A stretch of DNA of 35,533 nucleotides from Candidatus Woesearchaeota archaeon (GTDB taxonomy: Archaea > Nanobdellota > Nanobdellia > Pacearchaeales > GW2011-AR1). The translations under genes were made by a program, and so were the position numbers. The stretch is taken from positions 1 to 35,533 of the forward strand of contig CAZCXX010000002.1 of assembly GCA_964502865.1 (NCBI GenBank), written 5' to 3'. Below are positions 235 through 35,414 of this stretch, piece after piece (the first letter of the stretch is position 1; every line of letters starts with the position of its first letter). The notes under the pieces are model-generated. The model was not told where the DNA came from. It saw nothing but the letters and a program-made list of their open reading frames with translations, and searched no databases.

Positions 235-1389
235 TTATGTCTCTAAGTTTTCCTTTACTAGTGTCTTAACCCATTTTTTTATAATGACCATCTCAGATTC
301 CAAGCATTTTACTTTTTCATTTAAAATCTCTTTCTCATTATCTGATTTTTCGAGTCTTTTCTCTATTTCTGCTTTTGTGATATCTATCAATAAATCTTCC
401 TCTGTTATTGTATCTCTCATGCCTAACAACTCTGAGTAATAGTGAATTTTATCTGAGCTTTTCCAGCCAAACCGATATTTTAAGGCACTTTCGCTCTTAT
501 ATCGTGGCATCCAGTAGCAGCATGAACAATGGCGAAAATCATACATTGTGAGTTCTGAATATTTCTGACCTGCTGGACTTTCTTTCTCACCGAATATTTT
601 TCTTGCTAGTCTTTTGAGATATCTATTTACAACCGCAGGGTTTATCTTGAAAAGGTAATCATCTAAAGAAATCTTTTTATTTGTTACATATTGCTTTATG
701 AGTTCTGGGCAGAGCATGAGTTTAATTCTTCTTCCAAAGGTTTTGCTTATCTCTTCTCGAATATTCACTTCTTTGAAATCACTATGAAAATCTGAAACTT
801 TAATGTTCATTAATTCTGTTGGAGCTCGTATCCCTGAATCGAATAAGAACATAATAAGCACTTTATACTCGTATTTTACATTATCATAGACTTTCTTAAT
901 GTCGCTTTCAGTTAAATACACCCAGTCTGGCTTTTCTTCTCTTGAATCTAAATCCCTTGTAATATCAACTACTTCTATTTTCTTTTTTCGATTAATCTTT
1001 TCATACCAATGCCAAAAAGACCTAAAGATTTTAATATAATCTGAGACAGATTTATACCTCTTGCCATCGGGTCTCTTAATTGTTCCATTCATCATGGAAT
1101 TAAATAAAGAATGTATTTTCTCTTCAGTTAAATCTGAGATTTTATCGAGGTTATAGAGTGCTTTAATCTTTTTTATGATAAATATCATCCTATCTTTTAA
1201 TGAAATAAGACGAGTAAAGCTTCTCGCACCTTTTTTTGAACCAACTCCTATATTAACGCCTATTTCCATATCGTTAAGATATTGCATGAGGATATTCTTA
1301 TTGAACTCTCCAATTTCAGGAATGCCTCTGCTAGCCATTTCTTTCCATTTTACATAGACTTTTTCGCTATTGTAGGGATCTATCTTCAT
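235..1389 (-). CDS. Tyrosine recombinase / phage-type integrase
   Basis: ORF 235..1449. The C-terminal catalytic region carries DSGIRAPTEL (Arg), FRHCSCCYW (His-x-x-Arg-like) and a KIHYY Tyr region. I prefer the start at internal MKIDPYN (ATG 1387-1389) because a TATA-like TTTATAAG lies about 22 nt upstream. The gene lies directly beside the 3' end of tRNA-Glu. Confidence 0.8.
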   Translation of the reverse strand: MKIDPYNSEKVYVKWKEMASRGIPEIGEFNKNILMQYLNDMEIGVNIGVGSKKGARSFTRLISLKDRMIFIIKKIKALYNLDKISDLTEEKIHSLFNSMMNGTIKRPDGKRYKSVSDYIKIFRSFWHWYEKINRKKKIEVVDITRDLDSREEKPDWVYLTESDIKKVYDNVKYEYKVLIMFLFDSGIRAPTELMNIKVSDFHSDFKEVNIREEISKTFGRRIKLMLCPELIKQYVTNKKISLDDYLFKINPAVVNRYLKRLARKIFGEKESPAGQKYSELTMYDFRHCSCCYWMPRYKSESALKYRFGWKSSDKIHYYSELLGMRDTITEEDLLIDITKAEIEKRLEKSDNEKEILNEKVKCLESEMVIIKKWVKTLVKENLET

Positions 1390-1467
1390 TTGTATCTTAT
1401 GCTTGTTATTCTTATAAATAACAGGTATCTTTTGGGTACATCCCTGCAAAATGCCAGAATGGTAAAC

Positions 1468-1687
1468 TGCCCCTGCCGGGATTTGAACCCGGGTTTAGGC
1501 CGTTCTCCATCGCCTCAAGACACCTCAAATCTTGCGATTCTCGGCGCGCGTGAGAACCAGTGGTTCTCGACATGAGGCGCTGGTTAAAATCAGTGCCTGT
1601 CTGTGAGCAGACTGAAGTTGTTATCTCATCGACTGCAACTTCGGCTATACGAGAGGGCCTCGTCCTTGACCTCTAGACTACAAGGGC
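1468..1687 (-). tRNA. tRNA-Glu(CUC) interrupted by a 147-nt intron at canonical position 37/38 (intron = 1503..1649)
   Basis: Read on the minus strand. Acceptor GCCCTTG/CAGGGGC (one G-U pair), D stem GTCT/GGAC, anticodon stem AGGCC/GGCCT, loop CTCTCG|intron|C, T arm CCGGG-TTCAAAT-CCCGG, discriminator A. A BHB-like fold is possible: CTCT pairs GGAG, with 3-nt bulges CG|T and AA|C. A TATA box lies about 25 nt upstream. Confidence 0.75.
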
Positions 1688-1711
1688 AATGAAAGGATGG
1701 AGAGGTGAAGG

Positions 1712-2476: not shown

Positions 2477-2584
2477 CTGAAGAACTCTGGGTTGAAACCC
2501 AGAGGTTCCTTGAGTTCTTCAGACCTCGAAAATTCATTTGCTTACTCCGGACTAAAGCCACGGAGCGTGCGCAAGTGAATTTTC
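2477..2584. other. Two adjacent nested-stem hairpins in the spacer upstream of tRNA-Thr
   Basis: CTGAAGAACTC (2477-2487) pairs with GAGTTCTTCAG (2512-2522) and encloses CTCTGGGT/ACCCAGAG. GAAAATTCATTTGC (2528-2541) pairs with GCAAGTGAATTTTC (2571-2584), 13 of 14 positions, and encloses CTCCG/CGGAG. Confidence 0.6.
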
Positions 2585-2654
2585 TCAGTGTCAAATGTGA
2601 GGCGGCAGCAATAAGCGGCATGTTTTTATACACATTTTGTGATCGTGATTATAA

Positions 2655-5004: not shown

Positions 5005-6552
5005 TTATTTCTTCCAGAGCGGCTTTGTGCGAAGCGCTCGTACGTCGTTTTGATAGACTTCACGCAAGTCTTTAATTTTGTAATATTCCATGATGATGCG
5101 CTCGAATCCTTGTCCCCACGCGAGTACGCGGACGTCTGGCCCCAGTAAGGTGGTCGTTATTTCCGGTCTAAACATGCCTGCACCTCCGAGTTCAATCCAT
5201 ATCTTTTTTTCTGGGTGGAATATGTGCACCTCGACCGAAGGCTCGGTGTAGGGAAAGAAACTTGGCACGCACTTGATTTGGCCGTATCCCATCTTCTTAT
5301 AGAATGCTTTAAGGTATCCAAGCAGATGTTGTAGCGTTACTTCTTTGCTTACGACAATGCCTTCTGTTTGGTAGAATTCAAATAAATGGCTCCAATCGAG
5401 CGTTTCATTTCTGAATACTTTTCCAATGGCAAAATATTTTGCAGGGAGCTGATTTATTTTGAGTTCGGCAAGCGTTCGTGCAGAGAGACCTGTTGTGTGT
5501 GTTCTGAGTACCAGCTTTGTTGCTTCGCGCTCTTGCCAGGGAGAGTGCCACCCGGTACTTCCCGCAACTCCTTCTTCATGGCTTTCTTTCACGCGCTTTA
5601 CCAGTGCCGCAGGTGGTAGCGTCCCTTGTGCGTTTTTAATAAAAAAAGTATCTTGCATTTCACGCGCGGGATGATCTTGCGGGGTAAAGAGCGCATCGAA
5701 GACCCAGAAGGAAGTATCTACCAGCGGACCGGACATTTCAATAAAACCGAGATCGAGCCAGATGCGGCGGGCATATTCGACCGTATGAGTGACGAAGTTT
5801 TTCTTTCCTCCTGAGCGATGTGGTACTTGAGCATGAATGTCATATTTACGAAAACGCTTTCCTTTACTCCATGTTTTTATGATTTCTGGAGTGACTTCTT
5901 CAATAAGGTCAATGTCAATCTTCTGCCCGGCAAGCGTTTTTCCGAGCTGTGTGAGTAAGATCACTACTTTTCTTTCTTCGCGGAACTCAATAATCTCTTT
6001 TCTCTTTTTAAGACTTTCAACAGCATGCAATAGTTCTGGAGGGAGAGATTCAAGTGGACGGGGAAGCATTTCCAAGAGTTGTTCTTCAAATGATTTTTTA
6101 ATAAGATCATCCTTTGATGCGGTGAGCGAGATTTTTCCATTTGTAAGTGAGATAAGCGCTTTTCCTTTTAAGACTCCGAGTGATACTTTAAACTCATTGT
6201 CTGAAAGCTTTGCTTGCTTTTGCGCTTCCTGGAGCAAACGGTGGTTCTTTTCTTCCAATGCAAGAAGAAGTGCACGCTCGGGAAGGTGATTTTTCTTATA
6301 GTAAATACCGTTCGTGCTCAGATCCACAATGGTCTTTCTTTCTATTTCGACTTTAAGGATTGCTTTATTTTCCAAGAATCTAAGCCCGCGCAAGAGGGAA
6401 ACATCATCAAGACCTGACTTTTCCTTGATTTCTCCGTAAGGGAACTTTAGAAAGGAGATAATTTTACGTTCTAACGGAGAGAGTTTATCAATTATTTCTA
6501 TTACAGGTTCGAGATGTGCAGGTACCGCACCATTTTTTTGAGAGGAGGACAT
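5005..6552 (-). CDS. pheS: Phenylalanine--tRNA ligase alpha subunit (archaeal/eukaryotic type with long N-terminal extension)
   Basis: The 515-aa protein has a class II catalytic core (HPAREMQDTFF, LRTHTT, FRNE, GAGM...GFERI) preceded by about 250 aa of helical or winged-helix-like sequence. Confidence 0.9.
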   Translation of the reverse strand: MSSSQKNGAVPAHLEPVIEIIDKLSPLERKIISFLKFPYGEIKEKSGLDDVSLLRGLRFLENKAILKVEIERKTIVDLSTNGIYYKKNHLPERALLLALEEKNHRLLQEAQKQAKLSDNEFKVSLGVLKGKALISLTNGKISLTASKDDLIKKSFEEQLLEMLPRPLESLPPELLHAVESLKKRKEIIEFREERKVVILLTQLGKTLAGQKIDIDLIEEVTPEIIKTWSKGKRFRKYDIHAQVPHRSGGKKNFVTHTVEYARRIWLDLGFIEMSGPLVDTSFWVFDALFTPQDHPAREMQDTFFIKNAQGTLPPAALVKRVKESHEEGVAGSTGWHSPWQEREATKLVLRTHTTGLSARTLAELKINQLPAKYFAIGKVFRNETLDWSHLFEFYQTEGIVVSKEVTLQHLLGYLKAFYKKMGYGQIKCVPSFFPYTEPSVEVHIFHPEKKIWIELGGAGMFRPEITTTLLGPDVRVLAWGQGFERIIMEYYKIKDLREVYQNDVRALRTKPLWKK

Positions 6553-6582: not shown

Positions 6583-6770
6583 CTATAGGAAATCGCTTTA
6601 ATAATCGTAATTTCTAACGCGATTTCCTATCTATCAAACAACACAACCACTACGAAAATTAATGTTGTTTGATATAGAGGACTTTGAAAAACCCCAAAGT
6701 CCTCTATCGAACCGCTTTGAAAACCCTCGAAGGACATCGAAATTGGAGGGTTATTCAAAGCTCTCTATAG
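6583..6770 (+). repeat. Hairpin-repeat family B, copy 1 (four consecutive TAG...CTA-footed hairpins)
   Basis: CTATAG-GAAATCGC[22 nt]GCGATTTC-CTATC; TATCAAACAACA[19 nt]TGTTGTTTGATA; TAGAGGACTTT[10 nt]AAAGTCCTCTA; CTTTGAAAACCCTC[17 nt]GAGGGTTATTCAAAG-CTCTCTATAG. The first two hairpins recur at 13258..13350. Confidence 0.85.
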
Positions 6771-9074: not shown

Positions 9075-9686
9075 TCACTTGAAGATCTCTCCTGTTTCAT
9101 GGCTCCAAAAAAGGAGGTCGAGGTGGTCGAGAGGGATGTTGATTTTTTGAGAGAAGGAAAGGAATTGTTTTTCTAATTCGAGGTAGTGGGCTTTGTTTTT
9201 TATTCTTAAATCAGAGGGAGAGATGACTTTCAATTTAGCGAGGTTACGGAGGATGTGGCGATCGAGTATGGCGACTTGGTTGTCGCTACAGCCTATATTG
9301 CGGAGAAAATGGCCTGCTTCTTTAAGGCCGTAGCCGTTAATGTTTTCAGCCAGCCAGTTGCGGAGGAAGAGGCGATCTGTGTCTTGAAGGCGTTTTTGGA
9401 CGTCAGGCCAAAGAGCGAGATTTTTGAGGATGTAAGAGGCCTTATTTTTATGGAAACGTGTACGAGTTTGGAGGATCGGAATGAGCGCTTGTTTGGTGAT
9501 GAGGTGGAGTTTGACTATTTCTTCAACGGCGGACCAACACCGATGAGCGTTGCTCTGGGGAGTAAGTGTACAAAATAGAAATTCGTGAAAGTGTTGTTCT
9601 GGAGAGAGTTTTTTGAATGATGCTAGTTTTGTTGTAATTACTTGCTTACATTTGGAGTAATGTGCACGTAATTCTTCTTTTTTCAT
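9075..9686 (-). CDS. ogg: 8-oxoguanine DNA glycosylase / AP lyase, archaeal Ogg2 type (HhH-GPD)
   Basis: The 203-aa protein contains FCTLTPQSNA, GYGLKEAGHFLRNIG and AILDRHIL, which are the catalytic Lys and Asp context of Ogg2 enzymes. Confidence 0.8.
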   Translation of the reverse strand: MKKEELRAHYSKCKQVITTKLASFKKLSPEQHFHEFLFCTLTPQSNAHRCWSAVEEIVKLHLITKQALIPILQTRTRFHKNKASYILKNLALWPDVQKRLQDTDRLFLRNWLAENINGYGLKEAGHFLRNIGCSDNQVAILDRHILRNLAKLKVISPSDLRIKNKAHYLELEKQFLSFSQKINIPLDHLDLLFWSHETGEIFK

Positions 9687-9716: not shown

Positions 9717-9906
9717 CTATAGTGGAAGACCTAAGTCCTTCCCCTAATAGCAGACGACACATCAAGAATTATCGAGGCTTCAATTCTTGACTGCGCTCAA
9801 GGACTTCGAGAATATGCTTATTCTCGACAGTGATCAAGAATTGGTAAATTCTTGACATTAGCAAATCCTTGACGGAACGGGGAGAAACTTATGTCGTCTG
9901 CTATAG
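9717..9906 (+). repeat. Hairpin-repeat family A, copy 1 (longest, doubly nested)
   Basis: CTATAGTGGAAGACCTAAGTCCTTCCCCTAATAGCAGACGACA...[internal hairpin modules]...GGGGAGAAACTTATGTCGTCTGCTATAG. The ends match the copies at 18230, 23895 and 29681. Confidence 0.9.
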
Positions 9907-9914
9907 CGTATTTT

Positions 9915-11615
9915 TTAGATCAAACCTGCTTTGTGATGATTTTTAAGAAGTGATTTAACATGATGGACATCATCTATTTCATACGCAAAGTGATGTCCTA
10001 CTTTTGAGCCATGGCGGCGAGGTTTGTATTCAATCCAATATTTTTCAGGAGCAATTACCTGGGGAACGGGTAACACGAGGACCGGCTTTTTCTTTAGACT
10101 TTGAACTGGCGAGGTATTTGGATTTGGCGCAGCGCTCTGGGCAAGGGCTTCTGCTTCTTGTGCAACTTGTTCTTCCGCTATCTCGGCTTGCAATGCAATT
10201 TCCTCTTCAGTTGGTTTTGGTGGATGTATTTTTTCCCAGGTGGCGCTCGCAGTTTCCTTTACAGATTCATAATATTCTCGAGGATGGATCTTAGGAATAT
10301 GGTCAGTTACAGTATGTACATACTCACTTACTGGAAATTCCGAGATGTTCTCTTTTATGCGCTCATAATAGAGCAGAGGGTGAAATTTTGGAAGATGGAG
10401 TGCACGTCGGAGACGGGACGCACTGATCTGTGGATGAGGGAGATGGACTGACTTGATGTGCACGTCAGGGAGTTTAAGTTGCGGCAGATTTACATTTACA
10501 TCAGGCAATCGTAGTACGGGCAATTTTTCAATTAAATTATTTTTTTTTATGATACGAGCGCTTTTGTAAATCCTGTTCTTTAGGGCGGCGGTGGGAATCG
10601 TGTTTTTGATTCTATTGATAAGAGTGGAGAGCTTAATGCGAGGTCCATGGTTATCGTGAATGTTTATATGGGGAAGGGCAACTTTGGGAAGTTCCAAGTG
10701 ATGTAAGTGCACTGTGGAAAGCGAGAGGTGCTTTACATTGATTGGTGAGACCATCACACTCGAGAATTCCGGAAGTTTCAGTTCAGGCCAGTGTATTTGA
10801 GGGAGATGATGTACAGCATGTGGTGACGACGTTTCTTTTGAGAGAAGCAGTTGTCTCGCAGGTTTATTCGGCAGTTGAACACGTGTAAATACTTTAGTTG
10901 GGCGGATATTCTTGAGCTTATCGATAACCGATCGGACTTTATTTCTAAAGTTTTTCAGGTCTATCGTCGGAATATGGAACATGGGCTGAGTGGATGGCGG
11001 CAGTTGTGGGCTAACAGACATTAGTTTGTCAGCAAGTGCTTCCTGTTTCTGAATTGCTTTGGGATTTCTTTGTAATCGAAGTGCTTCTTTTTCCGCACGT
11101 TTTCGTGCTACATCTTCGATTATAAGTTTTTTGAAGTCAATTAGCAACTCGTGCATTTGTAGATCTTCGAGGGGTTTTCCTGAGTACGCGTATTCAATCA
11201 CTTTTTTCAGGATATTTGATGCAGAAGTCTGTTCTTTTTTTTCAAGTTGCAGTATCATCTCTGCGTAGGGTAATCTTTTCCCGACCTTGTATTCTTTAGA
11301 GAAATATTTACGAACTATGATGTCCATAACGTATAGTTTGTTAACCGCATCATCTTTACTAGAAATAAGCTGATTCAGTTCATCGATTAATTCGAGTTTT
11401 GGCGGTGGACCTTGGGCAAGTGTTGTTACCAGCCTTTCTTGTGGGGCAGGTTCTTTCTTAAAAAAACGGATGATTGTGGGAAATGGATTTAATGAATGTT
11501 CTTCCTGAACCGCCCCAGGAGTAATTTCTAATGCCTCAGGTTTTTTACTTTTTTTTAATTCGTGCTTTGCTTTAGCATGAGTAGCGTGCGACGCACGAAC
11601 CCTCTTTTTTTTCAT
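9915..11615 (-). CDS. Hypothetical protein with internal short LP-rich repeats
   Basis: ORF 9915..11672. I prefer the start at MKKKRVRAS (ATG 11613-11615), with TTTTTATAC about 20 nt upstream. It has a basic N-terminus and repeated (K/R)LP(D/E)(V/F)-type motifs (LRLPDVNVNLPQLKLPDVHIKSVHLP; LKLPEF...LELPKVALP). No known family. Confidence 0.6.
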   Translation of the reverse strand: MKKKRVRASHATHAKAKHELKKSKKPEALEITPGAVQEEHSLNPFPTIIRFFKKEPAPQERLVTTLAQGPPPKLELIDELNQLISSKDDAVNKLYVMDIIVRKYFSKEYKVGKRLPYAEMILQLEKKEQTSASNILKKVIEYAYSGKPLEDLQMHELLIDFKKLIIEDVARKRAEKEALRLQRNPKAIQKQEALADKLMSVSPQLPPSTQPMFHIPTIDLKNFRNKVRSVIDKLKNIRPTKVFTRVQLPNKPARQLLLSKETSSPHAVHHLPQIHWPELKLPEFSSVMVSPINVKHLSLSTVHLHHLELPKVALPHINIHDNHGPRIKLSTLINRIKNTIPTAALKNRIYKSARIIKKNNLIEKLPVLRLPDVNVNLPQLKLPDVHIKSVHLPHPQISASRLRRALHLPKFHPLLYYERIKENISEFPVSEYVHTVTDHIPKIHPREYYESVKETASATWEKIHPPKPTEEEIALQAEIAEEQVAQEAEALAQSAAPNPNTSPVQSLKKKPVLVLPVPQVIAPEKYWIEYKPRRHGSKVGHHFAYEIDDVHHVKSLLKNHHKAGLI

Positions 11616-11680
11616 AGGTGAAGGAGGGCACGCATGTATAAAAACATATCGAGGAGGTGTGTTGTCCCGCACTTAACCCT

Positions 11681-11924
11681 AAAGAAATCCTCTATCTTTA
11701 GATAGGGGTTTAATTTTGTAGAGGATTTCTTTGGTCTCACAAAACCACAAACAAACCTCGGCTTTTAAGCCGAGGTTAAAACCCGAAGGGTTTTGTGATA
11801 ACCGCAAGGCTGAGAGAAATTCCTGCCACGAGTATAGAGAACTGCGTAGGATAGATTACATTTTGTACGCATTTCTCTAATAGATAACTGCAGAACCATG
11901 TCATGCATCCCATGCAGTTATCTA
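11681..11924. repeat. Cluster of four TAG...CTA-type hairpins (unique stems)
   Basis: AAAGAAATCCTCTA/TAGAGGATTTCTTT; CACAAAACC/GGTTTTGTG enclosing CCTCGGCTT-TTAA-AGCCGAGG; TAGAGAA(C)TGCGTA/TACGCATTTCTCTA; TAGATAACTGCA/TGCAGTTATCTA. The junctions read TATAG, CTAATAG and CTATAA. Confidence 0.8.
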
Positions 11925-11949
11925 TAACGAAAGATCTTTACATAGATTT

Positions 11950-13159: not shown

Positions 13160-13244
13160 GGATCTGTAGTTTCAATGGTAAAATGTTCGGCTCCAGAAGT
13201 TGTGGAGCAACCGAAAGTCGAGGGTTCGATTCCCTCCAGGTCCA
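13160..13244 (+). tRNA. tRNA-Trp(CCA) with a 13-nt intron (about 13197..13209)
   Basis: GGATCTG TA GTTT CAATGGTA AAAT G TTCGG CTCCAG[AAGTTGTGGAGCA]A CCGAA AGTC GAGGG TTCGATT CCCTC CAGGTCC A. The intron TGGAG pairs with the anticodon-loop CTCCA, as in BHB substrates. Confidence 0.85.
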
Positions 13245-13257
13245 TGCCATTTGCATT

Positions 13258-13444
13258 TATAGGAAATCACTTTAATAATCGTAATATTCTAACGTGATTT
13301 CCTATCTAGCAAACAACAAAAAAGCTACGAAAATTAATGTTGTTTGCTATAAGGAGAATTATAGGAAAAGAAATTAATTTTCGTATCTTTCTTTTCCTAT
13401 CTATCGAGTGAAAAACTTCCGAAAACTTATTTCCCTCGATATAG
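13258..13444 (+). repeat. Hairpin-repeat family B, copy 2
   Basis: TATAGGAAATCAC[22 nt]GTGATTTCCTATC; TAGCAAACAACA[19 nt]TGTTGTTTGCTA; ATAGGAAAAGAAA[14 nt]TTTCTTTTCCTAT; TATCGAG-TGAAA...ATTTC-CCTCGATATAG. It starts 13 nt after tRNA-Trp. Confidence 0.85.
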
Positions 13445-13515
13445 ATAGCCAGCCGCAGCAAGCTGCTGAGTATTGGACTCAAAATGGAATAAAAACAAAA
13501 AATTAATCTACGTCT

Positions 13516-13966: not shown

Positions 13967-14026
13967 GTTTGAGCAATAAAGAATCCCAATCGCAGCAAGC
14001 TGCAGGGTATTCTTTAAGCCTCAAAC
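13967..14026 (+). repeat. Repeat family D copy (nested hairpin around CGCAGCAAGCTGC)
   Basis: GTTTGAG-CAA-TAAAGAAT-CCCAAT-CGCAGCAAGCTGC-AGGG-TATTCTTTA-AGC-CTCAAAC. The core also occurs at 13454-13466 and 18363-18375. Confidence 0.7.
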
Positions 14027-14071
14027 TGAGGAAGACGCACCAAGGTGCGGAGTATTTAACCCAATTTGAAA

Positions 14072-16156: not shown

Positions 16157-16206
16157 GTTTTTTGTCACGAAATGATTATAAAGCTGCTTTCTTCAGTGGG
16201 AGCGGT

Positions 16207-18228
16207 ATGAAAAAGAGATTGTCATTTAATGCTCAGGGAAAGCTTATTGGTGTTGATGGGGCATGGAATGGACAGGGTGGAGAGCGCGAGGAGGAACTTG
16301 AGGCTCCTGAGCAATTGAAACGATCCGAACATTTGAGTTTTTTACAGCAGCGAGAGTTACGAGAGTCTTCGGGTGAGGAGGGAGGGTGGAGCTTAAACTG
16401 CGATGGCAAAAAGCTTGCACCTTTGCAATTTTCTAATGGGAAGACACAAGAAGATGTTGTTAACGAAGTTATAACTTTGATCGAGCAGGGGAGTAAAATC
16501 GTGTTTATTCATGGCGTATGCGGTACGGGCAAATCCGCTATTGCGCTCAATATAGCCCGTCGCTTAGGCAAGGCATCTATTGTGGTACCTGTAAAAGGTT
16601 TGCAGCATCAATATGAAAGCGATTATACCACTAAGAAATATCTTGTTAAACCAGATGGGCATCGCTTAAGTATTGCAATGATCACCGGGCGTGAAAATCA
16701 CGACTCTCTTATTAAACCGGGAGTGAGTTGCGCGGATCCGTTCCTACCAGATACTATCAAGATCGCTGAAAAGAACTTTGGTCTTCTTCGTGAGTATTAT
16801 TTAGAAAATCCACTTATTTCAAACAAGGTTGAACCTACTGCAAAACAATTGAGACGTATCTCTATTGCTCCTGCAAATCCGTATTGGAGCCCCATTGCTC
16901 CTGCAGAGTTTGAATTGCCGCTTAAGGATGCCCGTAAAAAGGTATACCGGGGATTAGCTGGTAAGAAGTTTATCTTTTACCATCGGCAAGAGGGATGCTC
17001 TTATTATGATCAGTATCAAGCCTATATTGATGCAGATGTTATAATTTTTAATGCTGCAAAATTCTTAATCGAAACGGCTCTTGATCGGCGACCTGAGACA
17101 CGGGTCGATATTATTGATGAGGCAGATGAATTTCTTGATAGTTTCTCAACACAAGAGGAGTTAAACTTGAGTCGCTTAGTAAACGCACTAGGGTTGCTTC
17201 ATCCTGAGCGCTTGGATGTACGTGATGATGTTGATGCAATCATTGAACTTATTAAACTTGAAGAGAAAAATAAGCAGGCGCTCGGCATTGATGAAGGGCA
17301 GATATTTGAAAGCAAGGAGACGAAAATTCCTCGTATTGTCTCATTGCTACTTAAGTCTCCCGAGCTTGCTGCTGAAATTGCGCTCGATGAATTGAACTAT
17401 GCAAACATGGCTCTGGATGTTGCTGCTGCGTTTGAAGATTTTATGGATGATACATATGTCACTTATCAAAAGAAGGATGCCGACTTGTTTGTTCATCTGG
17501 TAACAACTAACTTGTCGAAAAAATTCGCGGGCTTACGAGAAAAAAGCAATGCCATGGTTTTAATGTCTGGAACATTACATTCTCCAGAAGTATTACGTGA
17601 AGTTTTTGGCGTCAACGATTTTCATGTCGTAGAAGCAGAAACGTTGCAACAGGGAACAGTTGAAATTCATCGTACAGGAAAAGAGATGGACTGTCGATAC
17701 TCACAACGGACCATTAATAAAGAGTTTCGAGAGCAGTATCTGCGAGCTCTCGAGAGTACGCTCGCACGTGCACGGAAACCGGCACTTATTCACGTACAAA
17801 CGTTTGATGATTTGCCTGCGGAATATGAGATTGCGCTTTATGGTCTTTCTGGGTTGATGACGCGGGAACAGCTCCAGCTTCTGCAAAGGCAGGACAAAAC
17901 AGGGAAACAGATTGCACGGTTTAAAGCAAAAGAAATTGATCAGCTATTTACCACTAAGTGTGGACGAGGAGTTGATTTTCCCGGAGAGATGTGCAATTCT
18001 GTTGTTTACACTAAATATCCCAACCCGAACGTAAGCGGTATTTTCTGGCAAGTGCTCAAGCGAACTCATGAAAAATATTTCTGGGACTTTTATCGGGATA
18101 AGGCGCGGCGAGAGTTTTTACAACGATTCTATCGTGCAATTCGATCAAAAGAAGATCATGTTTTTGTTTTGTCGCCGGACATTCGGGTTATAGAGGCAGT
18201 GAGGGATTTGCAGGGCGTGACTAGGTAA
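16207..18228 (+). CDS. Superfamily-2 DNA helicase, XPD/Rad3/DinG-like but without an obvious 4-Cys Fe-S cluster
   Basis: Walker A GVCGTGKS, motif II IIDEADEF, MSGTL, and the C-terminal TKCGRGVDFPGE...VVYTKYP typical of the Rad3-type helicase C-domain. I prefer ATG 16207 to the TTG at 16162. Confidence 0.7.
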   Translation: MKKRLSFNAQGKLIGVDGAWNGQGGEREEELEAPEQLKRSEHLSFLQQRELRESSGEEGGWSLNCDGKKLAPLQFSNGKTQEDVVNEVITLIEQGSKIVFIHGVCGTGKSAIALNIARRLGKASIVVPVKGLQHQYESDYTTKKYLVKPDGHRLSIAMITGRENHDSLIKPGVSCADPFLPDTIKIAEKNFGLLREYYLENPLISNKVEPTAKQLRRISIAPANPYWSPIAPAEFELPLKDARKKVYRGLAGKKFIFYHRQEGCSYYDQYQAYIDADVIIFNAAKFLIETALDRRPETRVDIIDEADEFLDSFSTQEELNLSRLVNALGLLHPERLDVRDDVDAIIELIKLEEKNKQALGIDEGQIFESKETKIPRIVSLLLKSPELAAEIALDELNYANMALDVAAAFEDFMDDTYVTYQKKDADLFVHLVTTNLSKKFAGLREKSNAMVLMSGTLHSPEVLREVFGVNDFHVVEAETLQQGTVEIHRTGKEMDCRYSQRTINKEFREQYLRALESTLARARKPALIHVQTFDDLPAEYEIALYGLSGLMTREQLQLLQRQDKTGKQIARFKAKEIDQLFTTKCGRGVDFPGEMCNSVVYTKYPNPNVSGIFWQVLKRTHEKYFWDFYRDKARREFLQRFYRAIRSKEDHVFVLSPDIRVIEAVRDLQGVTR

Positions 18229-18229
18229 C

Positions 18230-18304
18230 CTATAGTGGAAGATCTAAGTCCTTCCCCTAATAGCAGACGACAAACTGGGGAGAAACTAATGTCGTCTGCT
18301 ATAT
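18230..18304 (+). repeat. Hairpin-repeat family A, copy 2 (short form)
   Basis: CTATAGTGGAAGATCTAAGTCCTTCCCCTAATAGCAGACGACA-AACTGGGGAGAAACTAA-TGTCGTCTGCTATA. It starts 2 nt after the helicase stop. Confidence 0.9.
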
Positions 18305-18348
18305 TCAAGGGGCGCAGTGAATCGATACTGAGAAAGGCTTTTCTCTAA

Positions 18349-18413
18349 TAAAGAATCCCAGTCGCAGCAAGCTGCGGAGTATGGACTCAGTTTGAGCAAT
18401 CGAGTAAAGAATA
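18349..18413 (+). repeat. Repeat family D copy
   Basis: TAAAGAATCCCAGTCGCAGCAAGCTGCGGAGTATGGACTCAGTTTGAGCAATCGAGTAAAGAAT. It shares segments, in permuted order, with 13967..14026, and shares the core plus GAGTAT(T)GGACTCA with 13454..13481. Confidence 0.7.
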
Positions 18414-21673: not shown

Positions 21674-22504
21674 TTATGGGTTGCTGTTTTTCTTGCTGTT
21701 CACTACTGAAGACTTTTGTATTTTTACGCTAGAAGCTCTCGTATCCTTTTTTTCAGAAGCGATATGCACATTAATCGTATGTTCCGGAATGGAAAACTTA
21801 CTTGCATGGGGCGAAAGGGGAACATTATCATGGATCAACTCTTCATACACTCTTCCGGTTAGTATCTCAATTCCGTTGTCTCGAGTCAAGAGTGTTACCG
21901 GCTGAGTATAGGCACGCACGAACGCGGTTGCAACCAAGTGCCGATCTGTTTCAAGTTTTTCTCCTAGATTTACCCTACCCCCTCTTTCTTCTTTTGCTCG
22001 ACGCTTATCAAGCATGAGGTCAAATGATTTTTCACGTGCAATATCCATAAAATCATTATATTTTGCTTGTTCGTCGTATGTACCGGGCGTTTTACTACAC
22101 GCCTGGAGTTTTTTAATGAACCGAAAGAGCGCAACATTATATGAGGTGATGCAATCAAGCACGCTTCGGTAATATTGTATTTCATCATCAGGGTATTCTT
22201 GGATATACTCGCGCAATTCGCTTGTAAGGTGTAACTGTCTATCATTGAGCGTTTTTAAGTGATATCTTATTTCAGTACACACTTGAGGAATGGTAATGAC
22301 TTCCTGTGCATCTATGAGTCGTGAGAGCTCTTGCAGGCGTTCAAAACGACGCGTGATGAGTTCCAGGTCAAGCGTTTCAAAACATGCCAATCCCTCATAC
22401 AGGAGCGTCGCGAATTGCGTATTTTCGTGAGGGGTAATTACTGAAGTGTCTATAAGTATGACGTCTCCATTCACTTTTTCTTCGAGATCGGCTTTCAGTC
22501 CCAT
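21674..22504 (-). CDS. PIN-like nuclease domain split by an approximately 100-aa helical insertion, hypothetical
   Basis: VILIDTSVI (first Asp), QVCTEIRYHL (Glu), TDRHLVATAF and LLTRDNGI (third and fourth Asp) follow the PIN pattern. The C-terminal tail is Lys/Ser-rich. The gene lies 27 nt upstream of the PafA-like gene on the same strand. Confidence 0.5.
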   Translation of the reverse strand: MGLKADLEEKVNGDVILIDTSVITPHENTQFATLLYEGLACFETLDLELITRRFERLQELSRLIDAQEVITIPQVCTEIRYHLKTLNDRQLHLTSELREYIQEYPDDEIQYYRSVLDCITSYNVALFRFIKKLQACSKTPGTYDEQAKYNDFMDIAREKSFDLMLDKRRAKEERGGRVNLGEKLETDRHLVATAFVRAYTQPVTLLTRDNGIEILTGRVYEELIHDNVPLSPHASKFSIPEHTINVHIASEKKDTRASSVKIQKSSVVNSKKNSNP

Positions 22505-22561
22505 CAATAGGAAACAAACAATCTCTTTTTAAATCTTTTTATATTAGTAACTACCTAGTGG

Positions 22562-23894: not shown

Positions 23895-23968
23895 TATAGT
23901 GGAAGACCTAAGTCCTTCCCCTAATAGCATACGACAAAACGAGGAAAAACTAATGTCGTATGCTATAG
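23895..23968 (+). repeat. Hairpin-repeat family A, copy 3 (short form, compensated stem)
   Basis: TATAGTGGAAGACCTAAGTCCTTCCCCTAATAGCATACGACA-AAACGAGGAAAAACTAA-TGTCGTATGCTATAG. It overlaps the last codons and stop of the antiporter gene. Confidence 0.9.
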
Positions 23969-25674
23969 GTGGAATTATCTTTCCCTTCTTTAAGTTGTTG
24001 ACGATGTTGCCTGCCGAGCTTTCGGTAGATATCTTTATTAGTATGATACTGACGAATCAAATGCGAAGCATATTGGCCGCCCAAGTGATGCGGAATTAGG
24101 ACATAATCGACTCCTGCTTCATAAAGGTTGAGCGCGGTACGCGGTTGTTCTGCCGTTGCGATGAATATCGCTTTTGAGCCCAACTTTTTAAGCCGCTCAT
24201 TAATCGTACGGTTTGATGCTTCATCAGGGATTGTGGAGATGATCATCTTTGCTTTATCTATCGGGATTTCCGTAAGGAAATCCTGGTCTCCTCCATCACC
24301 ATAAATGCAGTCTATCTTCTCATTAGCCAGTGCAAGGATGGTTTTTGGATTATAATCGACAACTACAAATGAGAGTTTCATCTTTTTGAGCATATCGATT
24401 ATCTTGTATCCAATACGGTGATATCCGAACAAGACGATGTCATAGTTTTTTTCATGCTGCTGTTTGCTTAGATGACTCTTTCCTTCAAAAATTGTTAGTA
24501 GGTGTGATATCTTATTGAAAATTGAGTGGGAGTAGTAAATGCTGTAACTGCTCACACCGATTGTAATAACGGCAATCAAAATTACAAGGCTCATAATTTC
24601 TTGGCTGAGATGGCCGAGCGTAAATCCGAGCAGCGCGATAATAAGAGAGAACTCGCTAATTTGCGCGAGACTTGATCCTGCTAAGAAGTTAGTTCTTTTT
24701 TTGTACCCAAAAAATCTAAGCGTAGCCATGACGATTAGCGGCTTGCCAATTATTACAAAAAGAGAAAATATTACCGCGCTCTTTATGAGAGAGTAATCAA
24801 TGGTACCTGCAAGTTGACTTCCAAAGAAGACAAAGAAAAGAACAACGAAGAAATCTCGTAAGGGTTTCATCTTCCCGCCCAGTTCCAGTGTGTATTTGCT
24901 GGAAGCGAGCGACATACCTGCAATGAGTGCACCAATCTCGAGCGAAAATCCGAGGACGTCGAAGAGCGTGGCAAGGGAGAGCGCCCAGGCGATACTAAAG
25001 AGGAAGAGCGCTTCTTGATTTCGTGCGAGGTAGTCCAGTACGCGGGGAAGAATGACTCCTGAAAGCATGAATACTCCTGCACTGATGCCTAGGGCGATCA
25101 CTATTTTTCCTCCGAGCCAGAATAGATTGCCTTGATGCTCGACGAGCGGGATTGCCATGAGCGCAACTGCCGCAACAAAATCTTCAACAATAAGAATTCC
25201 GAGGGCAATACGACCATGGAGTGTATCGATTTCTTTTTTATCAGATAAAATTTTAACAACAACAACTGTTGAGGAAAACGCCAATGCTGCACCGATATAG
25301 AGGATTTCTTTATCTCCAAATCCTAAGCCGATAGCTATGAGGGCACCGATGCCGCCAGTGATTGTGATTCCAGCAAGCCCTGCGAATGTTGCAACACCGC
25401 CGATTTCTTTGAGGACGCGGAAGTCAAGCGAGAGACCGACGATGAAAAGAAGAAATGCAACGCCAATGTGTGCGAAAGTTTGAATGAGTTCTGATGTCGC
25501 AACATTATCGCCAACGAACTCTGTCAATGCGCCACCGAGCATAGCAGGACTAATAAGAATCCCTGCTACGAGATACGCGATCAAAGGTGGCTGTCGTATC
25601 ATTCGGGCAATTACCGCCAGGATTGCAGCAATACATATAATTACGCTAAGATACAATAACACCTCTTGCACCAT
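23950..25674 (-). CDS. Kef-type cation:proton antiporter (CPA2) with C-terminal RCK/TrkA-N domain
   Basis: The 574-aa protein has about 12 TM helices followed by a Rossmann-like DIVLFGYHRIGYKI...VVVD segment. TATTTAAAAG lies about 25 nt upstream. Confidence 0.85.
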   Translation of the reverse strand: MVQEVLLYLSVIICIAAILAVIARMIRQPPLIAYLVAGILISPAMLGGALTEFVGDNVATSELIQTFAHIGVAFLLFIVGLSLDFRVLKEIGGVATFAGLAGITITGGIGALIAIGLGFGDKEILYIGAALAFSSTVVVVKILSDKKEIDTLHGRIALGILIVEDFVAAVALMAIPLVEHQGNLFWLGGKIVIALGISAGVFMLSGVILPRVLDYLARNQEALFLFSIAWALSLATLFDVLGFSLEIGALIAGMSLASSKYTLELGGKMKPLRDFFVVLFFVFFGSQLAGTIDYSLIKSAVIFSLFVIIGKPLIVMATLRFFGYKKRTNFLAGSSLAQISEFSLIIALLGFTLGHLSQEIMSLVILIAVITIGVSSYSIYYSHSIFNKISHLLTIFEGKSHLSKQQHEKNYDIVLFGYHRIGYKIIDMLKKMKLSFVVVDYNPKTILALANEKIDCIYGDGGDQDFLTEIPIDKAKMIISTIPDEASNRTINERLKKLGSKAIFIATAEQPRTALNLYEAGVDYVLIPHHLGGQYASHLIRQYHTNKDIYRKLGRQHRQQLKEGKDNSTYSIRH

Positions 25675-25836
25675 AGTGCAGGAGAAGGGATGTACTTTTA
25701 AATACCTAGCGTTTTTGTTGAGGTTCTACTTTGCAAAGCCTTAAAAGCACTTTTTTGTTCCATTAATCATCATATTCATCCCTGTTTAGGCTGGGATGAA
25801 GGGCTCATCGCACGCGGCGCGGTGAGCCCACTTTTT

Positions 25837-26274
25837 TTAGAACAAATCTGTGATCGTATTTCTTGGAAGTCTCTGTCCTTTGCAGTAATTTTCGAGTGCA
25901 GTGATCTGCGCTCGTGGCGCACGGACTTGATGAGCGCGTTCGTATTGTTTCCACTGGGGAAATGTAAGCCACTCTAGCAATTCGATTTCATCTGGACGTA
26001 CAATGTGCGGTTCTTTTTGAGGAGTTGCAGTGTAGACGAAGTTCATTATTGCGTTTCCCCGGTCGCTTTTGAAGTAATATATGCCTACTATGTATTTGAT
26101 TATTACATCCGTGCCAATTTCTTCTCGCATTTCACGTTGGAGTGCTTTTTCGAGATTTTCTCCTGGCTCAACTTTTCCTCCAGGGATTCCCCATTTTGCA
26201 TCTTTTTTTGTTTTTAGACCCAGATAAAAATGATCACGAGAGATTATTGCCGAGACGGTGAGTTTATGATCCAC
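25837..26274 (-). CDS. Nudix hydrolase (MutT-like)
   Basis: The canonical Nudix box GGKVEPGENLEKALQREMREEIG is present. Confidence 0.85.
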   Translation of the reverse strand: MDHKLTVSAIISRDHFYLGLKTKKDAKWGIPGGKVEPGENLEKALQREMREEIGTDVIIKYIVGIYYFKSDRGNAIMNFVYTATPQKEPHIVRPDEIELLEWLTFPQWKQYERAHQVRAPRAQITALENYCKGQRLPRNTITDLF

Positions 26275-26744: not shown

Positions 26745-26916
26745 TTTCATCAGTCTTAGTATCTTCGCTTTCCTCAGCTCAGATGAAGGATTAACCTGCG
26801 AATGGTTGTTTTTCACTCGCTACATTCTTAAATACTCATTGTTTCTCTCTTTTTTATGAATGAGGTGACTCCTTTGCAGGATATAGAGAATTTCATTGAA
26901 AATGGGGCTATAAGTC

Positions 26917-27423
26917 ATGAAATTCTCTAATGGACAATTGCCGAAAACAGAGGACATAAGTAATGCAATTGTCCATATTTATTTTGCTGCGTCGATTCGT
27001 GGCGGACGCGAAGATATATCCGTCTATACTTCATTGATCACTCATTTGAGCAAGTACGCGCGAGTTTTAACTGAGCATGTAGGCAATCGAAATCTTGCAG
27101 CTTGGGGAGAAGATGGTCTAACTGACGAAGAAATTTACCAGCGAGACATGGGTTGGCTTGCATCTGCAAGGGCGGTGGTTGCTGAAGTTTCAAATCCTTC
27201 GCTTGGAGTGGGTTATGAGGTATGCGCGGGTTCGCTTATTTATCATCTTCCAACGCTCTGCCTTTATCGGAAACAAGAAGGCAAGCGTCTCTCTGCGATG
27301 ATTGCCGGTGCCCCCGGATTAATTGTTGCTCCATACGAGTCATTAGATGATGCACGGGCACTTCTTGATCAGTATGTTCCTCAATTGCTGGGGCTTCCGC
27401 GGAGACATCATGAAACTTCGTGA
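26917..27423 (+). CDS. 2'-deoxynucleoside 5'-phosphate N-hydrolase (DNPH1/Rcl-like, nucleoside 2-deoxyribosyltransferase fold)
   Basis: IYFAASIRGGRED, VLTEHV, VVAEVSNPSLGVGYE and LSAMIAG closely track human DNPH1 motifs (YFCGSIRGGRED, VLTEHV, VVAEVTQPSLGVGYE, LSAMIRG). Confidence 0.8.
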   Translation: MKFSNGQLPKTEDISNAIVHIYFAASIRGGREDISVYTSLITHLSKYARVLTEHVGNRNLAAWGEDGLTDEEIYQRDMGWLASARAVVAEVSNPSLGVGYEVCAGSLIYHLPTLCLYRKQEGKRLSAMIAGAPGLIVAPYESLDDARALLDQYVPQLLGLPRRHHETS

Positions 27424-29019: not shown

Positions 29020-29020
29020 A

Positions 29021-29710
29021 ATGGAGCGAGGCAGTGTGAAAAAAGGGCTTTTTATTGTCTTTGAAGGCATTGACGGCAGTGGAAAAACATCGCAGATTGA
29101 ACGTCTTGCACGATACATTCGCGCTCAGGATAAATATCGAGATGTTCTTTTGACACGGGAGCCTACTTGGCGTGCAACTGAATTACTTGAACAACTTCAA
29201 GGTAATGCAGACGCTTTTTCGAACGGTGAGCGCATGGCGTATCAATTTGTTTGGGATCGGAAAGCTCATACCGACGCACAGATTAAACCTGCCTTAGAGC
29301 AACGTGCGTTTGTTCTGTGTGATCGGTATGCGATGTCTACTTGTGCGTATCAAGCTGCGCAAGGTGTACTGCTTGATACTTTACTCCGCTACCATGAAGA
29401 GGCTCAAACACTTACTCCCCATATTACATTTTTTGTCGATGTCCCTCGTGAGGTAGCTGAAGCACGGATGATCAAACGAGGAGCTGCTCCTGAAAAGTTT
29501 GAGAAAAATGCAACGTTTACTGATTTACTTATTAAGCATTATCGTTTACTTGCAGAAAAAAGTCTTACAGATGAACGGTTACGCAGAGTTATCGGTCCTG
29601 TGGTGAGCATTGATGGAATGCCCTCTCTGGATCAAGTTGGTGAGCAAATTCAAGTTGCTTATGGTCAAGCGATGCGTGCTTATAGTGGAAGACCTAAGTC
29701 CTTCCCCTAA
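29021..29710 (+). CDS. tmk: Thymidylate kinase
   Basis: The P-loop FIVFEGIDGSGKTSQ and DRY motif (CDRYAMST) are present. The start is MERGS at 29021, 2 nt after the thyA stop. The last 9 codons and the stop lie inside repeat A4. Confidence 0.9.
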   Translation: MERGSVKKGLFIVFEGIDGSGKTSQIERLARYIRAQDKYRDVLLTREPTWRATELLEQLQGNADAFSNGERMAYQFVWDRKAHTDAQIKPALEQRAFVLCDRYAMSTCAYQAAQGVLLDTLLRYHEEAQTLTPHITFFVDVPREVAEARMIKRGAAPEKFEKNATFTDLLIKHYRLLAEKSLTDERLRRVIGPVVSIDGMPSLDQVGEQIQVAYGQAMRAYSGRPKSFP

Positions 29711-29816
29711 TAGCAGATGACACATCAAGAATTATTGAGGCTTCAATTCTTGACTGCGCTCAAGGATTAGCAAATCCTTGACGGAACGGGGAGAAACTTA
29801 TGTCGTCTGCTATAGT
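29681..29816 (+). repeat. Hairpin-repeat family A, copy 4 (intermediate form)
   Basis: TATAGTGGAAGACCTAAGTCCTTCCCCTAATAGCAGATGACA-[TCAAGAATT..AATTCTTGA; TCAAGGA..TCCTTGA]-GGGGAGAAACTTATGTCGTCTGCTATAG. Confidence 0.9.
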
Positions 29817-29857: not shown

Positions 29858-29939
29858 GCCCACGTGGGACAGCGGCACTCCGCATGCTTGGAGAGCATGT
29901 TTCCGAAAGGATTCCCAGGTTCGAATCCTGGCGTGGGCG
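29858..29939 (+). tRNA. tRNA-Ser(GGA)
   Basis: Acceptor GCCCACG/CGTGGGC, anticodon stem CATGC/GCATG with loop TTGGAGA, a long variable arm (TTTCCGAAAGGATTC), T arm CCAGG-TTCGAAT-CCTGG, discriminator G. Confidence 0.85.
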
Positions 29940-35316: not shown

Positions 35317-35414
35317 TTTGGCGGAGTACTCCGCCAAACATCGAGAATCCTGTGTTTTTGATTCTCGAGTGTGCTCAAGAATCTCAAAATAGACGAGAAG
35401 ATTCTTGACATTAG
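35317..35414 (+). repeat. Hairpin modules including family C (TCGAGAAT..ATTCTCGA-N6-TCAAGAAT..ATTCTTGA-CATTAG)
   Basis: TTTGGCGGAG-TA-CTCCGCCAAA (35317-35338); TCGAGAAT[12]ATTCTCGA (35341-35368); TCAAGAAT[18]ATTCTTGA (35375-35408); CATTAG. The same two-stem module sits nested inside repeat A1 at 9806-9861. Confidence 0.8.

Follow-up and report, generated by a model that had tools for sequence, protein, structure and literature searches.

Four copies of a two-hairpin element lie in one contig of a Candidatus Woesearchaeota archaeon, and the locus raises the question of what kind of sequence these copies represent and how they came to be there. The window, by which we mean the whole stretch of DNA that was analysed (35,533 nucleotides), is the entire 35.5-kb contig and has a GC content of 41.5%. 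Its housekeeping genes include PheRS alpha and beta, SerRS, ThyA, Tmk, Ogg, a Pup-ligase homologue and a helicase. A Na+/H+ exchanger, ribosomal protein S10 (named via its orthologue in the related contig L013) and tRNAs are also encoded. Among the homologues of Tmk, more distant ones carry the labels Nanoarchaeota or Pacearchaeota. No transposase domain was found in the 33 ORFs of the window, which is expected if the copies are non-autonomous. Rfam covariance models run on the window matched only four tRNAs, and the elements stayed unmatched even at E values up to 1. The ORF at 235-1449 encodes a probable tyrosine recombinase, as judged from motifs recognized by eye; its weakest PDB match was IntI4 (E 0.68).

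An earlier note on this DNA had described the copies as members of one family, here called family A, with short, medium and long nested forms. Their positions are as follows.

9718..9905, plus strand: family A copy 1 in its long form, 188 nt when the TA at either end is counted, with the element proper at 9720-9903; its neighbours are the start of an Ogg-like gene (9075-9686, minus strand) and the stop of an ORF at 9915-11672 (minus strand)
18231..18303, plus strand: family A copy 2, short form, 73 nt, with a G-T wobble in hairpin 1
23895..23967, plus strand: family A copy 3, a short form whose hairpin 2 contains a compensated pair
29681..29814, plus strand: family A copy 4, medium form, 134 nt

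The four co-oriented plus-strand copies are real. Matches to a 42-nt 5' core start at 9718, 18231, 23895 and 29681 with 0-1 mismatches, and the four matches to a 24-nt 3' end finish at 9905, 18303, 23967 and 29814; shuffled sequences contained none of either, and none is expected from them. The two hairpins were described correctly as well. Hairpin 1 pairs GGAAGAC with GTCCTTCC, hairpin 2 pairs TAGCAGACGACA with TGTCGTCTGCTA, and the hairpin-2 loops of the copies measure 17, 17, 78 and 132 nt. The copies are 73-188 nt long, have no ORF of their own and fold as RNA with z-scores of -5.0 to -6.5 against shuffles. The compensated change in hairpin 2 of copy 3 (G-C to T-A) and the one T opposite G in copy 4 are both present, and copy 2 has a further T opposite G in hairpin 1. 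Covariation inside family A is anecdotal, with a single compensated pair and 37 of 500 shuffles scoring equally high. The bounding CTATAG proposed earlier stands only in part: TATAG...CTATA is conserved, but the base before it (C/C/A/T) and the base after it (G/T/G/G) vary.

Neighbouring genes lie on the strands claimed for them, copies 1 and 3 being placed between minus-strand genes and copies 2 and 4 after plus-strand genes. Copy 2 begins 2 nt past the stop codon of the helicase gene (16162-18228, plus strand). Other copies extend into coding sequence. The last four codons (SIRH) and the stop (23950-23952) of the Na+/H+ exchanger (23950-25674, minus strand) come from copy 3, and the 9-aa tail and stop (29708-29710) of the thymidylate kinase Tmk (29009-29710, plus strand) come from copy 4.

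The longer hairpin-2 loops of copies 1 and 4 hold hairpin pairs of a second kind, designated E, which also occurs alone in the window.

9760..9875, plus strand: nested E insert in the hairpin-2 loop of copy 1, TCAAGAATT/AATTCTTGA plus TCAAGGA/TCCTTGA
9804-9857, plus strand: second, 54-nt E-type pair inside the second-hairpin loop of the copy 1 insert
29723..29784, plus strand: nested 62-nt pair of E hairpins within the loop of hairpin 2 in copy 4
35341..35408, plus strand: solo E-type hairpin pair, matching in kind the inserts of copies 1 and 4

The copy 4 insert consists of the hairpins TCAAGAATT/AATTCTTGA and TCAAGGATT/AATCCTTGA, 6 nt apart, and the copy 1 insert equals the copy 4 insert with the extra 54-nt pair of E type. 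Family A copies from other genomes have the short form in 10 of 10 cases. The medium and long forms consist of the short form with one or two nested hairpin-pair inserts. Solo E pairs were also found in two related contigs (L008 and L013), and further E pairs sit within a family B stem (L003) and, in L013, separate the two hairpins of a family C copy. E inserts show a duplication of at most 1 nt. Such pairs form an uncharacterised class of insert in their own right, and one single hairpin similar to E also sits within a long tRNA intron of the window.

Family A is not the only family of its build. The window holds six further elements with the same architecture and different sequence.

6584..6676, plus strand: family B copy 1, with end motifs TTTAATAATCGTA and TTAATTTTCGTA, which are those of the repeats of an IS630-family IS
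6673..6769, plus strand: family D copy, abutting family B with one TATA common to both
11833..11926, plus strand: family G copy
13258..13351, plus strand: family B copy 2, 14 nt downstream of the tRNA at 13160-13244
13360..13443, plus strand: family C copy, whose 5' end TATAGGAAAAGAAATTAATTTTCGTA is an exact fit to the IS repeat pattern
26882..26977, plus strand: family H copy, with the 3' end CCATA, not CTATA

All share a plan that runs from TATAG through hairpin 1, a short linker (CTAATAG or CTATCTA) and hairpin 2 to (C)TATA. With a covariance model trained on family B only, families C, A, G, H, I, J and additional ones were detected in the window and at four related loci, at E values from 2e-9 to about 0.01 (9e-5 to 0.012 for the family A copies); family D scores only E ~1. 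In 17 non-redundant elements, standard pairs occupy 353 of 370 stem cells (95%), against 39-48% when the 3' partners are slid, although the alignment was fitted to the covariance model and pairing is somewhat inflated. Most stem columns in these 17 elements contain three to five pair types, and the family B copies differ by several compensated pairs. Structure is kept across families unrelated in sequence, and the strong covariation is found between families, not inside family A. In every family, the outer ~26-27 nt form imperfect terminal inverted repeats, made of a TATAG (or TATA) tag, a 9-10-nt arm and an inner motif. The inner motif is TTAATTTTCG or TTAATAATCG in families B and C, and TAAGTYYYTCC in family A. 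The two arms of one element differ, and each arm is followed by its own inverted internal copy, which results in two hairpins rather than one long stem. Single fold-back half-elements exist as well, for example at 6794-6837 of L013. Together the elements make up ~3% of the contig.

All 10 elements of the window face one way, which has a probability of ~0.002 if orientation is random; orientation here means the strand with the higher model score, with family H a near tie and family D and the long A copies placed by eye, and the window had been picked partly for this very pattern. Orientations are mixed on other contigs, so that co-orientation does not hold as a general property. A cut-and-paste DDE mechanism does not predict it. 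A replication-strand bias was also considered, given the positive GC skew over most of the window. As a rule it was rejected: the orientation of family A agrees with the sign of GC skew in only ~6 of 9 loci, and other families are mixed.

Family A extends well beyond the window. A search with the core recovered short forms, 90-100% identical, in one Woesearchaeota MAG and six metagenome contigs, and the flanks of these copies have no nucleotide similarity to the window except for repeats of the same superfamily. Within the species collection, exact family A cores occur in only one genome, a Woesearchaeota MAG; a scan of viral contigs for family A and C cores gave no matches. Syntenic relatives are informative about insertion. 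Contig L013, and probably L008 too, is collinear with the window from 19.5 to 30 kb, with genes at ~70-73% nucleotide identity. In L013, both the SerRS/exchanger spacer (the site of copy 3) and the Tmk/tRNA-Ser spacer (the site of copy 4) are empty, and a tandem of families C and D lies between two genes that overlap in the window. Insertions are therefore lineage-specific. Element sequence is also far more conserved than that of genes (90-100% in family A against ~70%). Other comparisons were less productive. The contigs L008/L009 and L013/L014/L015, compared for insertion polymorphism, are 100% identical and contain no empty site. An exact-protein look-up and the relatives of ThyA yielded no useful strain variants or empty sites, and the spacer upstream of S10 is too diverged between the window and L013 for a clean empty site of a 44-nt single-hairpin element.

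The sequences flanking family A point to a TA target. All 14 of the sequenced copies have TA...TA flanks, and the outer TA on either side is the target duplication, outside the element proper (TAG...CTA); the duplication as such was demonstrated for the IS described below, and the empty sites of family A come from a relative of ~70% identity. With copy 4 removed and one TA kept, the sequence reads GCT TAG, which places a stop at the target. Under this TA model, the ancestral Tmk would have ended in ...MRA-TAG, within one residue of its closest homologues, and the ancestral exchanger in ...NSTYL*, where the orthologue ends in ...NSVY*. Some copies overwrite start or stop codons, providing a new stop and tail in two genes of the window and a new start in a relative. 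Tandem neighbours are less simple. TATA alone stands between families B and D in the window, D and C in L013, and J and D in L007, whereas a simple insertion next to an existing element, into its flanking TA, should leave TATATA on one side. Tandem composites may have transposed as units after they formed, which would give single TATA junctions.

A candidate source of the transposase was found outside the window. A scan for the pattern TATAG-N9-TTAATTTTCGTA over 185,579 species genomes returned at least 115 loci. About 80 of the matches listed lie in DPANN-type MAGs of Woese-, Pace-, Nano- and Aenigmatarchaeota and in contigs labelled "uncultured Methanosarcinales"; the remainder of those listed are isolated bacterial matches without a hairpin. 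Most archaeal matches listed are the same doublets, and a few run into a promoter-like TTTATATA, GAGGTGA and an ORF. At one locus (L066), ends of the form TATAG-N9-TTAATTTTCGTA and ...TTAATAATCGTA enclose an IS of 1102 bp. Its orfA (191 aa) carries HTH_33/HTH_32/HTH_23/HTH_29 domains and its orfB (142 aa) a DDE_3 domain, and the two cover positions 2-136 and 162-294 of the NCBIfam model NF033545, "IS630 family transposase". The left and right repeats of this IS contain exactly the two motif variants found at the ends of family B.

The IS has further copies. That of one Woesearchaeota MAG, 64% identical, is truncated where the contig stops, and that of another Woesearchaeota MAG was partly recovered at 65% identity over orfA, with the ends not located. 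A Micrarchaeota MAG has a complete copy of 1109 bp with repeats identical at 24 of 26 positions. Metagenomes contain many 1102-bp copies, including Ga0209541, the sample from which two of the family A copies come (L006 and L010). At E <=1e-10, orfA belongs to a family of 503 proteins; among the 120 listed, a length of 191 aa is nearly universal, often on contigs of ~1.1 kb. Four of four aligned orfA sequences end after ...DMRSxFW.K..SS, just before the DDE_3 frame. This common stop suggests that orfA and orfB are joined by a conserved frameshift.

The target of the IS could be read from its junction. When the L066 IS is removed and one TA kept, two hydrophobic half-ORFs fuse into an 87-aa protein, which aligns end to end and gapless at the junction (GFIGAAIYY|IQAATGFW) with intact homologues of 89-90 aa. 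Keeping TATA, or nothing, does not restore the 87-aa ORF. The IS thus duplicates TA, as IS630/Tc1/mariner elements do. A 4-bp TATA duplication, or TATA as an unduplicated target of HUH type, had at first been favoured because tandem neighbours share exactly one TATA, and is ruled out by this junction. The IS and the short elements differ in one respect. IS ends have no fold-back, whereas nearly all MITEs have one. Among the matches listed in the pattern scan, a fold-back with at most one mismatch is present in 57 of 74 archaeal and 2 of 35 bacterial cases, and several other archaeal matches have a looser one. Since the fold-back is absent from IS ends, recognition by the transposase does not explain the hairpins.

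How firmly family A itself can be tied to this IS depends on its termini. Compared by eye, the right end of family A (reverse complement TATAGCAGACGACATAAGT) and the IS right repeat TATAGCATAAGACATTAAT agree at 15 of 19 bases, and the left end agrees with the IS left repeat at 12 of the 19 terminal bases. In family C, the right end ATAAGTTTTCGG forms a bridge between both inner motifs. Like the other families, family A carries TATAG and TA flanks, and it resembles them in size, layout, hosts and samples. A regular-expression search of ~0.95 Mb of DPANN DNA found no full-length IS with the inner motif of family A (TAAGTYYYTCC in place of TTAATTTTCG), and neither did a protein-guided genome scan, look-ups of encoding contigs and the IS copies examined bring up an IS with repeats of family A type. 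Family A is therefore assigned to IS630 on the strength of common termini, architecture, TA flanks and co-occurrence. On these grounds, family A is very probably an IS630-family MITE moved in trans by a DDE transposase. Its cognate IS may be unsampled, or family A may be cross-mobilised. The earlier interpretation is supported in part: a structured or mobile family is borne out by copies at non-orthologous sites, empty sites, the IS and the structure common to different families.

We propose that a DDE transposase would excise the gene-less copies and insert them at TA dinucleotides. This enzyme would consist of an HTH orfA and a DDE_3 orfB joined by a frameshift, and be supplied by a 1.1-kb IS elsewhere in the genome. 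In its build, the MITE amounts to two fold-back half-elements joined tail to tail with their complete repeats outward; a simple origin would be the joining of two such halves, each made of a complete repeat and its tip copied in inverse orientation. Short forms would later have taken nested insertions of the second hairpin-pair kind, leading to the medium and long forms. Both the movement of family A by such a transposase and the origin of the doublet are what we infer from the comparisons above.

The fold-back has been kept with compensatory changes across more than 10 sequence families and many DPANN lineages. The matching of the arms could reflect either selected pairing or template switching at quasi-palindromes, a process that can give apparent compensation without selection. 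The fold-back doublet might be a selected feature, serving structure-dependent mobilisation or exapted as RNA or DNA modules at gene ends, which we regard as unlikely. In the mobilisation variant, the doublet would present cruciform or single-strand ends to the IS630-type transposase or to a second enzyme. If the fold-back is indeed selected, the near-identity of family A across genomes would mean frequent horizontal spread among DPANN archaea or purifying selection.

Three further explanations place the copies outside this type of mobile DNA, or outside mobile DNA altogether. The repeats could be structured-RNA genes or cis-elements, such as small RNAs, 3'-end stabilisers or terminator-like sequences, with a selected fold and no mobility. 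Very stable folds (z -4.3 to -7.8), stems that covary across families, the compensated pair in copy 3 and a location mostly at gene 3' ends are consistent with such a role, as is the very high identity of the repeats across genomes whose genes are ~30% different. Plus-strand wobbles occur in copies 2 and 4, of which that in copy 4 had earlier been read as a hint of a plus-sense RNA; the hint is not supported, as these two positions alone favour it and a T-to-C change in L005, L007 and L008 breaks the pair on the plus strand and leaves a wobble on the opposite strand only. Two neighbouring genes have the copies in sense orientation and two in antisense. Copies also occupy different positions in syntenic relatives, in some cases overwrite stop or start codons, and have no Rfam match. 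Apparent compensation is obtainable by template switching, and an autonomous transposon with the same ends exists. A primarily RNA-based role is thus quite improbable. Splicing of introns at bulge-helix-bulge motifs, an idea prompted by a long tRNA intron beginning with TATAG and a hairpin, was rejected because no such motif fits the element ends and half of the copies are antisense to their neighbours.

Mobility by a different enzyme has to be weighed too. REP/BIME/REPIN-like elements, or PATEs of the IS200/IS605 type, would depend on a Y1 HUH transposase that acts on tagged single-strand hairpins without target duplication. Each module here is a conserved tag followed by a hairpin (TATAG, compared with the GTAG of REPs), and two modules with different stems stand head to head with the tags outside, similar to the head-to-head heterodimers of REPs (PMC3733652). 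Stems covary and tags are fixed, tandem neighbours have one TATA in common, and the ten elements of the window are co-oriented in a stretch of mostly positive GC skew. However, the tag is TATAG in all families (or TATA) and not GTAG or CGTC, the same ends enclose a DDE_3/IS630 IS instead of a Y1 enzyme, and that IS duplicates TA. The ends are inverted repeats, so that the loop motifs are inverted and the two hairpin loops complementary, unlike the left and right ends of IS200/IS605, which are alike on one strand, have no terminal inverted repeats and belong to elements that insert 3' of a fixed tetra- or pentanucleotide. Element orientation is mixed in other contigs, no Y1_Tnp gene is present in the annotated loci examined, and RAYT-class proteins were absent from Archaea in a 2018 survey (PMC6006769). 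We consider a Y1 HUH system highly improbable. The hairpins could finally be sites of a tyrosine recombinase, attC-like as in integrons or dif-like, perhaps for the ORF at 235-1449. They are conserved in structure and variable in sequence with fixed base sequences, and, located at gene 3' ends, all point one way in a window that encodes a probable tyrosine recombinase. An attC site borders a mobile gene cassette beside an intI gene. The intervening genes here, though, are housekeeping genes on both strands and syntenic with a relative without the elements, and hence are not cassettes. R''/R' core sites (RYYYAAC/GTTRRRY) are absent, the integrase match is not significant, and here too the same ends enclose a DDE transposon. 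This leaves recombination sites with almost no probability, and an IS630-family MITE as our preferred reading of family A.

Under the preferred reading, the repeat family is explained as ordinary selfish DNA and tied to a specific transposase family, which aids the annotation of DPANN genomes. These elements rewrite gene ends and break assemblies. An abundant IS630-type IS and at least 10 derived MITE families are present in MAGs of Woese-, Pace-, Nano-, Aenigm- and Micrarchaeota. With their near-identity across divergent genomes, family A copies could serve as a marker of gene flow between these uncultivated archaea. Such a load of mobile DNA is noteworthy in very small genomes, though it had already been noticed in a census that placed a woesearchaeal genome among the archaea of highest MITE density (PMC11602168).

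IS630-family ISs and TA-flanked MITEs are textbook elements. The claim that no archaeal element of this description was known applies to the exact sequence, but not to the kind, as MITEs derived from IS630 are well known. Family A is thus ordinary mobile DNA with an unusually regular two-hairpin build. The partner IS resembles other IS630 ISs in its size of ~1.1 kb, its HTH and DDE_3 domains and its duplication of TA. ERIC-type elements are TA-flanked (PMC3184786), and MITEEc1 (= ERIC) is filed under IS630 (PMC11602168). Like ERIC and other IS630 MITEs, the elements described here are ORF-less, TA-flanked, strongly folded, bounded by inverted repeats and mostly placed in intergenic regions or at gene ends. 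They differ from ERIC in their hosts, which are DPANN archaea, in their unrelated sequences and in having two separate hairpins from the fold-back of 9-nt arms, where ERIC has one long end-to-end stem. Compared with IS630 MITEs in general, the parent IS here lacks the fold-back, and the cognate IS of family A was not found in the DNA searched.

REPs offer a formal resemblance. They combine a short conserved tag with a palindromic stem-loop, form head-to-head heterodimers and occur as singletons, clusters and occasional intragenic copies (PMC3733652). The likeness to REPs, BIMEs and REPINs lies in the tag beside a stem-loop and in the outward tags of head-to-head pairs; the difference lies in the TATAG tag in place of GTAG/CGTC, the duplicated TA and ends that match a DDE-type IS and not a Y1 HUH one. 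Correia elements (CREE) of Neisseria are closer at the termini. Their terminal repeat begins with tatagtggatta... (tatagtgga) (PMC5039591). The first 9 bases of that repeat equal the left end of family A (TATAGTGGA), and the rest is unrelated. Correia elements are ~100-160 bp long and multi-copy, as here, but they are bacterial and, unlike family A, have one long stem with IHF and promoter sites. They are reportedly TA-flanked, a finding credited to Buisine and colleagues (2002), and we know of no transposase identified for them to date, whereas a plausible one was identified here for the superfamily. Among archaea, MITEs such as the IS630-related SM1 of Sulfolobus are non-autonomous elements that an IS630-family transposase reportedly moves with TA duplication, as attributed to Redder and colleagues (2001) and Filee and colleagues (2007). 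The elements described here differ from SM1 in phylum, in sequence and in their fold-back doublet architecture. The MITE-specific fold-back of each end is the sole unusual feature of family A, and its conserved doublet is the one feature that deserves a specialist's second look.

The TATAG elements, the two-hairpin, TA-flanked MITEs of which the window holds ten, can rewrite gene starts besides gene ends. In L013, a contig collinear with 19.5-30 kb of the window at about 70-73% nucleotide identity, a family D copy (6300-6398) provides the called ATG and roughly the first nine codons of an 85-aa gene, and the window orthologue starts with MNFVYTAT. Repeats also seem to have colonised the intron of one of the following tRNA genes.

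Window 1467-1688, minus strand: tRNA gene interrupted by a very long intron (ARAGORN, introns allowed)
Window 13160-13244, plus strand: tRNA, Leu(cag) or Gly(ccc), the call depending on the intron setting
Window 29858-29939, plus strand: tRNA-Ser(GGA) (Rfam, E-value mode)

The apparent colonisation is suggested by TATAG and a hairpin at the start of the intron of the first gene, and by a further hairpin within it (TCGAGAACC/GGTTCTC) resembling the small inserts of class E. The ARAGORN call for this gene, obtained solely with introns allowed, is Gln(ttg) and an intron of 124 nt; on inspection by eye, the gene could be Glu(CUC) with an intron of about 150 nt at position 37/38. For the second gene the call is an intronless Leu(cag), which changes to Gly(ccc) and an intron of 13 nt once introns are permitted. 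The tRNA-Ser(GGA) gene scores 50.4 bits in the E-value mode of Rfam and is missed in gathering mode; its orthologue is present after Tmk in L013.

Tandem neighbours among the TATAG elements have exactly one TATA in common (B-D, D-C and J-D), and each of these junctions involves family D. A new TA-duplicating insertion beside a resident element would be predicted to leave TATATA on one side. All ten elements in the window lie on the plus strand, where the GC skew is mostly positive, and those of related contigs occur in mixed orientations. The uniform orientation in the window may be due to chance. Two further kinds of repeat accompany these elements in the window and related loci.

Window 6673-6676; L013 1094-1098; L007 8622-8626: single-TATA junctions
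Window 9760-9875, 29723-29784, 35341-35408; L003 5951-6000; L008 9082-9141; L013 6596-6708, 10848-10907: E-type inserts
Window 13972-14069, 18347-18400, 13445-13490; L013 15331-15427: repeat family F

E-type inserts are hairpin pairs with the pattern TC(A/G)AG(A/G)A.. / ..T(C/T)CT(C/T)GA, the two hairpins lying 6 nt apart. They occur solo, nested in the loops or stems of TATAG elements or nested in their own kind, with a duplication of at most 1 nt. In family F, GAGTAT comes after a pair of hairpins, CGCAGCAAGCTGCG and GCACCAAGGTGC, and the copies of this family in the window and L013 are 89% identical at non-orthologous sites.

In the aligned copies of the IS630-type transposase, the split falls at a common point close ahead of the DDE_3 domain, where ...DMRSxFW.K..SS is followed by a stop.

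L066 5377-5392, and the equivalent place in L101, L133 and L134: transposase split site

In L133 the segment stops short of this point by a few residues. The position of the split just ahead of DDE_3 suggests programmed frameshifting rather than decay.

Contigs labelled 'uncultured Methanosarcinales archaeon', namely L066 (CAYNNM010000034.1) and about 20 other loci, carry DPANN-type MITEs and IS. More distant homologues of the gene interrupted in L066 are labelled Woesearchaeota or Nanoarchaeota, and these MAGs may therefore be mislabelled or DPANN-contaminated, or the elements may cross between DPANN archaea and putative hosts. The same explanations may apply to single contigs that carry doublets under the labels Gammaproteobacteria, Uhrbacteria and Patescibacteria.

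Two stretches of the window recur in L013, and two open reading frames of the window lack family matches.

Window 2478-2594: structured stretch upstream of tRNA-Thr, 85% identical to non-syntenic L013 10904-11020
Window 25769-25844: GC-rich hairpin, 90% identical to L013 6000-6077 in the same syntenic spacer
Window 21674-22507, minus strand: 277-aa ORF between a Pup-ligase homologue and SerRS
Window 235-1449, minus strand: 404-aa ORF with tyrosine-recombinase-like motifs, by eye

Rfam gave no match for either stretch; the GC-rich hairpin may be either a terminator or a small RNA shared by the two genomes through conservation. The 277-aa ORF, without a family match, is missing from the elsewhere collinear L013. 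The 404-aa ORF contains RAPTEL, YDFRHCSCCYW and HYY. It had no match in Pfam, and its sole match in PDB, the integron integrase IntI4, was not significant (E 0.68). Its position at the contig end, adjoining two tRNA genes, suggests that an integrated element has its border here.
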